Program-made: the position numbers and the translations under genes | Sequence record: KX130862 | DNA length: 64,000 nucleotides | From: Shigella phage SHFML-26 | Direction: 5' to 3' (one strand) | Part shown: positions 5,808 through 29,960 of the stretch, one piece after another | Position numbering within the stretch: position 1 is the stretch's first letter | Layout: every line of letters starts with the position of its first letter | Notes under the pieces: generated by a model | The model's database searches: none | What the model saw: only the letters and a program-made list of their open reading frames with translations | What the model was told of the DNA's origin: nothing

Positions 5808-6050
5808 TTAATATCCTCTTTGTTTTGGTTTATTTTACCAAAAATTTATAAAGCAATATAGGAGCCGAAGCTCCTATCCACATAATACGCCATACAGAGG
5901 CTCGTTAGAACTTTTAAATTTTATGCGCTTATATTTTATAGTTCCTTCTGCTTTAGCTTTATCATGAGACTCTTTAAAGCGTCTCATCATTTCCTCTTTA
6001 GAGAAACGAATTTTATTATAATCTATTTCAGAAGTCTGGGTGTTCATCTT

Positions 6051-6257
6051 TCATAACTGCCACCATTTTTTGACTTGATAAGAATCAACCCACACTTTCA
6101 TATTAGGGTCTGCTCTTACAATAGGAGGATTAACTTCTTTAATTGAACTATCATGGTATTCTTTTTCAGAAATTTTCACACAAAGATGACCATTCAAAGA
6201 TTCAGTAAATCCTGCATTAATTTTAAGACGCTTGAATTTTACGTGTGTAAGCATCAA
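6051..6257 (-). CDS. hypothetical protein
   Basis: 68-aa ORF co-oriented with neighbours; start uncertain. Confidence 0.4.
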   Translation of the reverse strand: MMLTHVKFKRLKINAGFTESLNGHLCVKISEKEYHDSSIKEVNPPIVRADPNMKVWVDSYQVKKWWQL

Positions 6258-6540
6258 TCATATCCTCAATTTGCGATCTAGTAGTCTTCCAAAGAATACT
6301 GATGAGTTCATCGTTATATGGCTGTTTTAGAATATCCCGACTTTTCTTGATAGCATATTCGTATTGAGCAAAATTATTATTTTCAGCTGCAATCTGAGCG
6401 TGCTTATAAAGACGATTCAGTTCGCGTTTGTTTTTAGACAATAACTTATTTGCTTTTCTTTCTGCTTCAAGACGGTTCTTTTCTTCAATAGAAGAAATAA
6501 GCTTTTCCACTTCATTATTAATTTCGGGTTTATCAGTCAT
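6223..6540 (-). CDS. hypothetical coiled-coil protein
   Basis: 105-aa ORF, charged and helical. Confidence 0.5.
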   Translation of the reverse strand: MTDKPEINNEVEKLISSIEEKNRLEAERKANKLLSKNKRELNRLYKHAQIAAENNNFAQYEYAIKKSRDILKQPYNDELISILWKTTRSQIEDMIDAYTRKIQAS

Positions 6541-26806: not shown

Positions 26807-27388
26807 CTAACCGAGCTTTTTAGTTAATTCGTTCCAATGTTTTCTACACAAAGAAACATAAATTTCATCACCAATACAGATTTGATTACCTTCTTTAACT
26901 GGTGTTCCATCTTCCATTAATCGAGCTGTCATAATAGCTTTTTTACCACAATGACAAACTGCCTTTAGTTCAATAAGTTTATCTGCAATCGCCAAAAGTT
27001 CTTTAGAACCTTCAAATAATTTTCCAGCGAAATCAGTCCTTAGCCCATAAGCCATAACAGGAACATTATATGTATCAACAATTCGACTTAATTGATGCAC
27101 CTGTTCGGTTTTTAAAAACTGAGCTTCATCTACAAATACACAATGAATATCTTTTTGTGCTTCAGCCCATTTATAGAACTCAAAAATATCCATATCATCC
27201 GTAATAATATTCGCTTCCTGCTTAATTCCAATGCGAGAAACGACTTCACAGACAGAATCACGAGTATCAATAGCAGGCTTAAGAACTAATACACCCATTC
27301 CGCGTTCTTTATAATTATGTGCAGCAGTCAAAAGAGAAGCAGATTTTCCAGCATTCATTGCTGCGTAAGTAAAAATTAAACTCGCCAT
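26807..27388 (-). CDS. tk: thymidine kinase
   Basis: 193 aa; P-loop AMNAGKS, FVDEAQF, C-terminal zinc-binding cysteines; length equals T4 Tk. Confidence 0.95.
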   Translation of the reverse strand: MASLIFTYAAMNAGKSASLLTAAHNYKERGMGVLVLKPAIDTRDSVCEVVSRIGIKQEANIITDDMDIFEFYKWAEAQKDIHCVFVDEAQFLKTEQVHQLSRIVDTYNVPVMAYGLRTDFAGKLFEGSKELLAIADKLIELKAVCHCGKKAIMTARLMEDGTPVKEGNQICIGDEIYVSLCRKHWNELTKKLG

Positions 27389-27397
27389 ATCACCTTC

Positions 27398-27583
27398 TTA
27401 AAGCGTATTCACATAAGCTATTAATTCGTTTTCTTTCTTATCAAACCGATCAGCAAATTCTTCTTGCTGATCGGGAGATAGCGGGCCGTATTCATCATAA
27501 AAGGTGTTTGCTTCTGTATGCTCATCTAGAAGTTCATGGATAAGCTCAAACAATTTATCTTTTTGTTCTTTACTCAGACTCAT
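27398..27583 (-). CDS. small acidic hypothetical protein
   Basis: 61-aa ORF. Confidence 0.5.
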   Translation of the reverse strand: MSLSKEQKDKLFELIHELLDEHTEANTFYDEYGPLSPDQQEEFADRFDKKENELIAYVNTL

Positions 27584-27753
27584 ATATTAATTTCCAGGAG
27601 TTTTAAAATAATTCGCTTTTGCTTAAATATTTCCATAGTTAAATGACCAGTATCTTTTTGACCGATTCCAATGGCAAAACCTTTATTGACAGCGAGTTCA
27701 ATTAAATTATCAAGCTCACGTAACACTTCATATTGTAACTCAAAACTATTCAT
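27580..27753 (-). CDS. small ORF (about 57 aa)
   Basis: ATG-initiated minus ORF coupled to neighbours by ATGA overlaps at both ends; below the track cutoff. Confidence 0.3.
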   Translation of the reverse strand: MNSFELQYEVLRELDNLIELAVNKGFAIGIGQKDTGHLTMEIFKQKRIILKLLEINI

Positions 27754-27977
27754 TTTGGTTTACCTTCTTTAACGAAATCAGGATAAGGATAAAATCCTGA
27801 ATAAAATCCTTCACCTTTATGATTGATGCATCCTTTATTAGAACAATAGCACCAATAATCGAAATCACAAGCCATTTCATCATTACATAAAGCAAAAACA
27901 ATCGGCCATTCACACTTTTCGCAGTGGGCATTTTTAAGAATACTAGTTTGGCTCATAACCATGTAACCTTTAAACAA
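27750..27977 (-). CDS. Cys-rich small protein (putative zinc binding)
   Basis: 75 aa with 8 cysteines (HCEKCEW...CDFDYWCYC...GC). Confidence 0.45.
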   Translation of the reverse strand: MFKGYMVMSQTSILKNAHCEKCEWPIVFALCNDEMACDFDYWCYCSNKGCINHKGEGFYSGFYPYPDFVKEGKPK

Positions 27978-28165
27978 TATTCTTCTACATGTTGTTTACG
28001 ACCTTTCCTATCAATAAAGGTATATTCAACGAATGTTCCAATATAGTCTTTATCTACATCATGTGGACTATTAATTGGGCATTTAGTACGGCAAATGCGT
28101 TCCCATTGACGAATAATTTCCACTTTGTTTTTAGGATCAAACGGATGCGGGTAATGTACTTTCAT
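27953..28165 (-). CDS. hypothetical protein
   Basis: 70-aa ORF. Confidence 0.45.
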   Translation of the reverse strand: MKVHYPHPFDPKNKVEIIRQWERICRTKCPINSPHDVDKDYIGTFVEYTFIDRKGRKQHVEEYCLKVTWL

Positions 28166-28616
28166 AATCCACCACTATTAAATCAATATCAGGAGTAAAC
28201 ATGTCGATTAATTTAGAAACCTTATCCCAATCGCCGCCAGCAATACCGCAACCTATGCGTGGAATGTAAATTACTGGTTTAAACAAAAGGGTTTCTGCCT
28301 GTAGATTTAATTCTATCATGCAGTTTACTAAAGCACCATAATCAAGATTAGGACCCGGTTCGTATTGTGTATACAGGTTATAGCATATACCAAATCCCGT
28401 AGGACTATGTTTAAAAACAATAGACATATCGCCTAATTTATCACGAGAACCGTACTCGGTAGTGGTTTTATCTATTTCTAAAATTTTGGGATAGGCTCTT
28501 GCTAATTGACCTGCTACGCCAGAGCCCATTGTGTGGAAGCAATTGCACCCGTGCGCAATAATATTACCTTGAAGAAATAGGGCGACAATATCGCCCTTGA
28601 TATATTTTACAATCAT
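28137..28616 (-). CDS. macro-domain protein (TARG1/OARD1-like ADP-ribose processing fold)
   Basis: 159 aa; motifs GDIVAL...IAHGCNCFHTMGSGVAG and PRIGCGIAGGDW resemble ADP-ribose binding/hydrolysing macro domains. Confidence 0.65.
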   Translation of the reverse strand: MIVKYIKGDIVALFLQGNIIAHGCNCFHTMGSGVAGQLARAYPKILEIDKTTTEYGSRDKLGDMSIVFKHSPTGFGICYNLYTQYEPGPNLDYGALVNCMIELNLQAETLLFKPVIYIPRIGCGIAGGDWDKVSKLIDMFTPDIDLIVVDYESTLPASV

Positions 28617-28954
28617 CTAGTACTCAATCCTCGATTATAAGAATCTACTAAACGGTCAACCATTGAATGACAAGCGGCTTTATCTTTCTCCTCCGCAACT
28701 GAACATTCTAAGGTATTCCACTTTTTAGCATATCGTTTTAACAATGTATCATTTTTGTATCTGCTTGATTTATCTCTTTCTCCGTCTTTATATGCATATA
28801 TTAATTTCTGCGCAAATTCAGCTTGGCATGCTTTATTTTTCCCGCAATAATCCGCTGCAGTACGGTTTACATACTCTCTAATTTCAGTATATGATGTATC
28901 TGCTAACGCAGAAAATGAAATTAATCCTATACATAAAACCAAAATTTTAGTCAT
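28613..28954 (-). CDS. secreted or periplasmic hypothetical protein
   Basis: 113 aa; N-terminal signal peptide MTKILVLCIGLISFSALA; several cysteines. Confidence 0.55.
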   Translation of the reverse strand: MTKILVLCIGLISFSALADTSYTEIREYVNRTAADYCGKNKACQAEFAQKLIYAYKDGERDKSSRYKNDTLLKRYAKKWNTLECSVAEEKDKAACHSMVDRLVDSYNRGLSTR

Positions 28955-29309
28955 TTACTATTTCCAAAAGTTTATTATTTTTAAGGTAATTAGCCTTTTC
29001 TAGGACTTCAGAAGCATATTTAGAACCTGCTTTAACATTCCATCCCGAATTATAAGAGGATATTGCTTTTCTTATATCGCCCTTATGTATATTTAACCAA
29101 TAAGAAAGTTCAATGTACGCCCAGGAAGCTGAATTGGACCGTTTATTCAACATTCTTTTTATTTCAGCATCGGTCATATTATAACCAAGTTCCTTGACTC
29201 TCGCTCGCATAGTAGGCAAATAATTTTGGAACATTCCATAGGCATGATGCTTTGGTTTAGATTTTAAATTAACTCCGGCAGAGCTTTCTTGCCACAAAAT
29301 AGCAGCCAT
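28947..29309 (-). CDS. lytic transglycosylase-like (SLT) domain protein
   Basis: ILWQESSAG, YGMFQ and SYNSG motifs resemble SLT catalytic motifs; track ORF 28947..29321 starts at TTG, ATG at MAAILWQ overlaps the upstream stop (TAATG). Confidence 0.6.
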   Translation of the reverse strand: MAAILWQESSAGVNLKSKPKHHAYGMFQNYLPTMRARVKELGYNMTDAEIKRMLNKRSNSASWAYIELSYWLNIHKGDIRKAISSYNSGWNVKAGSKYASEVLEKANYLKNNKLLEIVND

Positions 29310-29491
29310 TATATGACCCAATCCGCTCTTATGGATGTTTTTGTGTGTTTTATATTTTCCATCCTTAGAAAATTGTTCCCGAATTGATACGCGTAACGCA
29401 TGTTATCGAGTTGGACATTACTGAAAGTATGCTCGGAGCTATGTGCCATCATTGAAATGGCCAATAGACCAGCGAGTAGTGCTTTTCTCAT
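29309..29491 (-). CDS. small protein with signal peptide
   Basis: 60 aa; MRKALLAGLLAISMMAHS signal-like N-terminus; translationally coupled to the SLT gene. Confidence 0.45.
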   Translation of the reverse strand: MRKALLAGLLAISMMAHSSEHTFSNVQLDNMRYAYQFGNNFLRMENIKHTKTSIRADWVI

Positions 29492-29498
29492 GCTTACC

Positions 29499-29960
29499 TC
29501 ATTGAGTTTTAATTACTGCTTTAGAAGCCTTTCCTGGTAAACGACGACTGTTGATAATTGCCATCCTGCATTGAAGTGACGGGTTTTTGAACTTCTCATT
29601 AGGCTTACAAACCGTAAATCCAAGCCAAAGATTTCCATCTGTGATTTCTAAACGTCCAGGACGATATTCAACCCCATCAATAAAATCCTCGTCAATGTCA
29701 GGACGCGGAGGCATACTCAGGAATTCATTAACTTCTAAAACATGGTCTTTTATTTTATGGAATAATTCAAAAACATATGTCTCATCAATCTCCCGTTGAA
29801 TTGCACGATCAAGAAGATGTTGAGAATATTTTAGATGAAACGATGAGACTCCTGCTGCTTTTGATGCCTCACGAATCTCATTGTTAATTTGACGAAACTC
29901 CGACTCAAAATGACGACGAAGCTTATTTCGACGGATAAAAACTTCTGTATTGATAGTCAT
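29499..29960 (-). CDS. regB: RegB sequence-specific endoribonuclease
   Basis: 153 aa; MTINTEVFIRRNKLRRHFESEFRQ; early promoter (GTTTAC -35, TATAAT -10) and GAGGAG SD upstream; matches T4 RegB. Confidence 0.95.
   Translation of the reverse strand: MTINTEVFIRRNKLRRHFESEFRQINNEIREASKAAGVSSFHLKYSQHLLDRAIQREIDETYVFELFHKIKDHVLEVNEFLSMPPRPDIDEDFIDGVEYRPGRLEITDGNLWLGFTVCKPNEKFKNPSLQCRMAIINSRRLPGKASKAVIKTQ

Follow-up and report, generated by a model that had tools for sequence, protein, structure and literature searches.

The gene at 28137..28616 on the minus strand of Shigella phage SHFML-26 (record KX130862, of which a 64,000-nt stretch, hereafter the window, was analysed) is, judged by its sequence and gene order, a divergent allele and ortholog of T4 tk.4, which has been renamed adfM. 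By analogy with its characterized relatives, the encoded macrodomain protein probably acts as a free-standing, antitoxin-like DNA ADP-ribosylglycohydrolase against DarT2 of the DarTG2 system. The gene itself is already known: its A1pp/macro-domain annotation is old, and the anti-DarTG2 role was published in 2025.

The minus-strand translation contains exactly the motifs that an earlier note, which gave no strand, had quoted for this 159-aa ORF (GDIVAL, AHGCNCFHTMGSGVAG and PRIGCGIAGGDW), and also MIVKYIKGDIVALFLQGNIIAHGCNCFHTMGSGVAGQ...PRIGCGIAGGDWDKV. The Pfam Macro profile PF01661 matches it with 32 bits (cut-off 22, E = 1.3e-7) over profile positions 2-117 of 118, and PHROG 335 with E = 1e-71. 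An AF2 model with a pLDDT of 93.5 has the three-layer alpha/beta/alpha macro fold, and a tblastn search with the protein matched 2788 phage records. As far as sequence and model comparison can tell, the product is confirmed to be a macrodomain, with a match well beyond chance. Both the macro fold and the glycine-rich loop, the loss of which the earlier note had named as grounds for abandoning this assignment, are retained (G122 and G124 are invariant in 42 homologs). The ORF lies between tk and regB, as the same note had placed it, in the following arrangement:

26807..27388, tk, one end of the block
27398..27583, minus strand, tk.2-like ORF abutting tk (68% nt identity to T4 tk.2)
27580..27753, minus strand, RB32ORF110c (phrog_3452), an insertion without T4 counterpart
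27750..27977, minus strand, RB32ORF111c (phrog_2306), an insertion without T4 counterpart
27953..28165, minus strand, tk.3, downstream neighbour of tk.4 (ORF listing, PHROG 2008)
28137..28616, minus strand, tk.4/adfM coding sequence, ATG start, 159 aa, single macrodomain (ORF listing)
28613..28954, minus strand, vs (valyl-tRNA synthetase modifier), upstream neighbour of tk.4 (PHROG 1256, E 5e-40)
28628..28632, minus strand, Shine-Dalgarno-like GAGGA, read from the sequence, 11 nt before the ATG of tk.4
29309..29491 (60 aa) and 28947..29321 (124 aa), minus strand, vs.1 fragments split by a frameshift
29499..29960, regB, the other end of the block

The T4 protein (T4p110, NP_049723, 155 aa) aligns with the window protein over 155 aa at 58% identity (E 1e-70, gapless). 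The two share the locus (tk.3-tk.4-vs-vs.1-regB), a similar length, the single macrodomain and all invariant active-site residues, whereas 42% of residues differ and the window protein has four extra C-terminal residues. In the T4 record (NC_000866) the gene order is tk, tk.1, tk.2, tk.3, tk.4, vs, vs.1, regB, and tk.4 is annotated as "phosphatase; contains A1pp phosphatase motif". The gene-named record LR746311, which labels the ORF at the matching position tk.4, has the order tk, tk.2, RB32ORF110c, RB32ORF111c, tk.3, tk.4, vs, vs.1, regB. The position of tk.4 between tk.3 and vs is thus conserved in the window, LR746311 and T4, and the earlier note was mistaken in not recognising a T4 gene here. 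Over the 3.2 kb surrounding the ORF, many Tequatrovirus genomes (for example the BASEL phage WilhelmHis at 99.3%, UTI-E2 and vB_SsoM_113) show 98.6-99.3% identity to the window, with coverage of at least 80% in 465 records. The window allele is present in identical or nearly identical form in over 300 phage records, and a number of these name the product "macro domain protein".

The same note had counted more ORFs in this block than in T4, and it was right by one: four small ORFs (tk.2-like, RB32ORF110c, RB32ORF111c and tk.3) lie between tk and tk.4 here, compared with three (tk.1, tk.2 and tk.3) in T4. The macrodomain gene itself is not among the extra ORFs, which are RB32ORF110c and RB32ORF111c; T4 tk.1 is absent from the tk-tk.4 block of the window. 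RB32ORF111c is rich in cysteine (CEKC...CNDEMAC...CYCSNKGC) and may be a small protein that binds zinc. On the other side of the gene, an indel at about 29377 shifts the reading frame of vs.1 (28947-29491, minus strand), which in T4 encodes a lytic-transglycosylase-like protein of 181 aa; the CCCC run of T4 and vB_SsoM_113 is one C shorter here. The deletion is absent from all 501 matching phage records, of which the best has 99.0% identity and a span of 102 nt compared with 101. Either vs.1 is truly a pseudogene in this phage, or the missing C is a sequencing error in the homopolymer.

The genes around tk.4 overlap. Its start shares the ATGA at 28613-28616 with the stop of vs, and tk.3 begins 29 nt within its 3' end, an overlap of 4 nt in T4. 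The overlapping regB, vs.1, vs and tk.4 are probably co-transcribed. A promoter and terminator scan of the region found no specific site directly upstream of tk.4, and sigma-70-like sites were not enriched (15, compared with 19.5 +/- 4.9 in shuffled sequence). The best minus-strand site, TTTACT-17-TATAAT at 30016-29988 (10 of 12 positions, with an upstream TG), is found shortly before regB and could serve the early transcription of regB-vs.1-vs-tk.4. Within tk.4, codons 7-13 contain a GC-rich hairpin, AGGGCGAT-ATT-GTCGCCCT (28579-28597, minus strand), which was scored as terminator-like in both orientations. T4 has the same sequence there, since the 5' end of tk.4 is conserved, and the stability of the hairpin exceeds that of shuffled sequences only marginally (z -1.64). 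In a second predicted helix the start-codon region is paired with the upstream UUAUAAUC.

The active site was read from an alignment of 42 homologs with 39-80% identity to window Tk.4. Residues G8, H22, G23, N25, C26, G33, A35, D49, G62, N80, Y82, T83, Q84, G88, P119, G122, G124 and W130 are invariant in all 42. The conserved Asn and both glycine-rich loops are present, with N25, G31/G33 and G122/G124/G127/G128 invariant or nearly so. The relevant positions are:

28509..28553, minus strand, residues 22-36 HGCNCFHTMGSGVAG, first ADP-ribose-binding loop, with invariant H22, G23, N25, C26, G33 and A35
28542-28544, minus strand, N25 codon, aligned with SCO6735 Asn27 (hhalign to SCO6735/BT1257)
28365..28379, minus strand, residues 80-84 NLYTQ, with N80, Y82, T83 and Q84 invariant in 42 of 42
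28365-28367, minus strand, Q84 codon (CAA), where DarG (K80) and TARG1 (K84) have the catalytic Lys and SCO6735 has Gln85
28227..28262, minus strand, residues 119-130 PRIGCGIAGGDW, glycine-rich phosphate-binding loop, with P119, G122, G124 and W130 invariant

The profile comparison with macrodomain structures that the earlier note had proposed located equivalents of catalytic-site residues at N25 and Q84. Against SCO6735 and BT1257, hhalign gave a probability of 99.1% (E 1e-18), with N25 on Asn27 and Q84 on Gln85. Against a profile of DarG and PhiKZ gp104 the probability was 98.6%, and Q84 fell on the Lys of FPTK, which is K80 in DarG. The phosphate loop aligns with PRIGCGLAGG of BT1257 and SCO6735 and with PRIGCGLDRLQW of TARG1. 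The place of TARG1 Asp125 (PRIGCGLD) is taken by A126 (PRIGCGIA); among the 42 homologs, 38 have Ala there, 4 have Gly and none has an acidic residue.

From this alignment the active site of window Tk.4 is predicted to be of the SCO6735 type, with Gln where DarG and TARG1 have their catalytic Lys. SCO6735 lacks that Lys and yet de-ADP-ribosylates DarT-modified thymidine in DNA (PMC9411070). Its Q85, equivalent to TARG1 K84, is indispensable there, the Q85A mutant being inactive and N27S almost inactive; Gln85 was proposed to position the distal ribose, with a backbone-held water starting catalysis (PMC9411070). SCO6735 (Streptomyces coelicolor, PDB 5E3B) and BT1257 (PDB 2FG1/2AFC) are Gln-type ALC1-like proteins with about 26-29% identity to window Tk.4, and are encoded by bacterial chromosomal genes, not by phages. 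The Gln at the Lys position and the stabilising Asn of this subgroup are found in the window protein; the longer loop with Lys89 is not. According to hhalign, five residues are missing directly after Q84-Y-E in the mobile loop, which is therefore as short as in DarG and TARG1. The SCO6735 loop is five residues longer than theirs, and mutation of Lys89 considerably lowers its activity on DNA (PMC9411070). Since the Tk.4 family is without the longer loop, including Lys89, transfer of the mechanism from SCO6735 is inexact. In addition, Gly23 of the window protein stands in place of Val25, at a position that acts through the backbone.

All of the nearest structural and sequence neighbours of window Tk.4 belong to the ALC1-like class (ALC1, TARG1, DarG, SCO6735 and Poa1p), which sets it apart from the MacroD, CoV Mac1 and PARG classes. 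The reading of the earlier note, a macrodomain of TARG1/OARD1 type, is partly supported. TARG1/OARD1 (PDB 4J5R/4J5S) is the top Foldseek match (E 3.9e-10, TM 0.72-0.84) and shares the PRIGCG loop; however, identity is about 20% and the Lys84/Asp125 dyad is replaced by Q84/A126. With Q84 invariant and position 126 never acidic, TARG1-type catalysis was rejected.

Membership in the DarG family was rejected as well. The NCBIfam NF048014 model requires 250 bits and gave 27.7, matching only at positions 2-142 of its 338; the Lys at the K80 position is absent, and there is no C-terminal DarT-binding domain. Nor is there a darT beside tk.4 in the window, where the neighbours are vs and tk.3. The DarG macrodomain (PDB 5M3I, 5M31/5M3E, 7OMU) and PhiKZ gp104 carry the catalytic Lys in FPTK, whereas Gln is invariant in the Tk.4 family. 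Likewise, gp104, the sequence of which was translated from the methods of PMC13309987, matches Mtb DarG at E 9e-25, compared with 5e-5 for window Tk.4. We rejected gp104 as a close homolog of window Tk.4, as BLASTP returned short local matches only. A bacterial member of the Tk.4 family is encoded on the Pelagimonas phthalicica chromosome (40% identity, 6001-6459 of the examined locus). At this single locus, inspected for signs of a co-opted toxin-antitoxin origin, no DarT neighbour was seen, and housekeeping genes (peroxiredoxin, M23 peptidase, tryptophan halogenase and biotin synthase) lie nearby; in this one case the homolog resembles an orphan macrodomain such as SCO6735.

Genetic evidence on function comes from T4. 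When a T4 transposon library was screened on a DarTG2-expressing host, in work that used M9-glucose at 30 C, tk.4 was the single significant hit, and a clean tk.4 knockout sensitised T4 to DarTG2 (bioRxiv 10.1101/2025.11.20.689424, not peer reviewed). The gene was accordingly renamed adfM, for anti-DarT factor Macrodomain, and a structural likeness to Mtb DarG was noted (bioRxiv 10.1101/2025.11.20.689424). The same authors say only that enzymatic removal of ADP-ribose from DNA by T4 Tk.4 "seems likely" (bioRxiv 10.1101/2025.11.20.689424), and the enzymatic activity is thus an inferred one. A DarTG2 role of tk.4 fits the finding that T4 without adfA and adfN is still fully DarTG2-resistant (PMC11825919); adfN is gene 30.3 and encodes a NADAR enzyme that reverses the guanosine modification made by DarT1 (PMC11825919).

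Biochemical evidence comes from other macrodomains. PhiKZ gp104, independently named AdfM (Cell Reports 2026, PMC13309987), strips ADP-ribose from a DarT2-modified TNTC oligonucleotide in vitro, with lower activity in the N23A mutant, and rescues DarT2 toxicity (PMC13309987). DarG, TARG1 and SCO6735 all hydrolyse synthetic T-ADPr, with a preference for TCT(ADPr)C ssDNA (JACS 2026, PMC12879935), and dT-ADPr hydrolysis is therefore a general property of the class. The two proteins named AdfM, the T4 Tk.4 type and gp104, align with each other only at the profile level. Gp104 is of the Lys type and DarG-like, while T4 Tk.4 is of the Gln type and SCO6735-like, so that they belong to different ALC1-like subgroups and one name covers two mechanistically different enzymes.

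We infer the same activity and biological role for the window allele as for its relatives, the DarTG2 phenotype having been obtained solely with T4 tk.4, whose product shares 58% identity with that of the window gene, and the dT-ADPr chemistry with SCO6735, DarG, TARG1 and gp104, which are not Tk.4-family proteins. The suggestion in the earlier note that the gene could reverse a DarT-like ADP-ribosylation defence was a good one: the T4 ortholog is needed against DarTG2, and the role probably extends to the window allele by analogy. According to the proposed mechanism, window Tk.4 would be made during infection and act as an orphan antitoxin-like enzyme. Host DarT2 would attach ADP-ribose to thymidines in single-stranded phage DNA, at TNTC motifs. 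Lodged between the two glycine-rich loops of the macrodomain, the ADP-ribose would be released by hydrolysis of the thymidine-ribose bond, with invariant Gln84, held by invariant Asn25, predicted to position the distal ribose. Erasure of the ADP-ribose would restore replicable DNA, and replication would continue. Because the protein, at 159 aa, has no second, DarT-binding domain, it would erase the modification only and could not sequester the toxin as full-length DarG does.

Other substrates have to be weighed against DarT2-modified DNA. The T4 annotation and the PHROG 335 label both speak for a housekeeping ADP-ribose-1''-phosphate phosphatase, which would act in the manner of Poa1p on a tRNA splicing or repair by-product or a related metabolite. 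This annotation is motif-based, however, with no assay behind it, and DarTG2 sensitivity is the one phenotype reported for T4 tk.4. Macrodomains commonly show weak Appr-1''-p phosphatase activity in vitro as a side reaction. The N-terminal half of window Tk.4 does resemble the yeast enzyme (PDB 6LFQ-6LFU; E 1.6e-9), but the match is weak after residue 80 or so, the Poa1p substrate is a small molecule with no link to phage defence, and BT1257 and SCO6735 are nearer than Poa1p in both sequence and fold. We therefore regard the phosphatase as an unlikely function.

A protein mono-ADP-ribosyl hydrolase, removing ADP-ribose that host ADP-ribosylating toxins or defence enzymes place on Asp or Glu, or tuning the modifications made by the phage Alt, ModA and ModB enzymes, would agree with the rank of TARG1 in the Foldseek search and with the ability of TARG1 and SCO6735 to de-modify Glu-linked auto-modified PARP1 as well (PMC9411070, PMC12879935). 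Set against this are the absence of the Lys84/Asp125 dyad and of any report of a corresponding phenotype, and we consider such a role decidedly unlikely. T4 Alt, ModA and ModB modify arginine. Cleavage of arginine-ADP-ribose is not known for macrodomains of the ALC1-like class, which counts against the tuning of these enzymes. We judge very improbable a role in reversing RNA ADP-ribosylation, for example by CmdT-like mRNA ADP-ribosyltransferases or by uracil-modifying enzymes, or in degrading an ADP-ribose-derived immune signal, for neither of which there is genetic evidence. Defences that ADP-ribosylate RNA and enzymes that reverse them do exist, SCO6735 is mentioned in papers on them, and the similarity of thymine and uracil would make U-ADPr a plausible substrate. 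The mRNA ADP-ribosyltransferase system CmdTAC robustly defends against T-even phages (PMC11618068). These phages carry tk.4, which therefore evidently does not neutralise CmdT. Hydrolysis of DarT2-made thymidine-ADP-ribose thus appears to be the probable function of window Tk.4.

The divergence of tk.4 from its T4 counterpart lies in a stretch with sharp borders, delimited by 60-nt sliding identity in a MAFFT alignment of the window with T4 and by blastn segments:

28128..28594, no strand assigned, divergent tk.4 allele cassette compared with T4 (nt identity 45-78%; flanks 87-100%)

The flanks at 87-100% identity comprise tk.3, vs, vs.1 and regB. The first 20 or so nucleotides of tk.4 are about 98% identical to T4; the upstream border of the cassette falls directly behind them, within the coding sequence. 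On a larger scale, blastn matched the window to T4 at 93.6% from 24266 through tk, at 68% over tk.2 and at 89.8% overall from tk.3 to vs.3, with 27585-27951 unmatched. An identity of 45-78% in tk.4 between flanks of 87-100% points to a swapped allele, and the locus looks like one of cassette exchange in counter-defence. In the phage database, a window-type allele (at least 90% aa identity) occurs in 311 records, a T4-type allele (at least 90%) in 224 and an allele with 80-90% identity to T4 in 159; metagenomic intermediates at 62-82% exist. The differences between alleles lie outside the three conserved active-site blocks. In the phosphate loop, the window protein has GCGIAGG and T4 Tk.4 has GAGIGKG. 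With 45-67% nucleotide identity between the two alleles, their synonymous positions are saturated.

It is possible, although on balance doubtful, that the Tk.4 family represents a distinct third ALC1-like active-site design, combining the Gln type with a short loop, and that the alleles at this locus (window-type, T4-type and intermediate) are specificity variants under an arms race. That race could be driven by variation in DarT2, by other toxins that ADP-ribosylate bases or by host factors directed against the macrodomain itself. Window-type and T4-type alleles would then not be interchangeable.

The tk.4 locus behaves like an exchangeable allele cassette, which is typical of genes under defence and counter-defence selection. 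Specialists may find this of interest, as well as the combination of a Gln-type site and a short loop and the collision of the AdfM name with the Lys-type PhiKZ protein. In terms of annotation, "phosphatase" or "hypothetical protein" in several hundred Tequatrovirus genomes should become macrodomain anti-DarT2 factor (adfM). As published for T4, T-even phages layer their erasers, with the NADAR enzyme AdfN for guanosine modified by DarT1 and the macrodomain Tk.4/AdfM for thymidine modified by DarT2.
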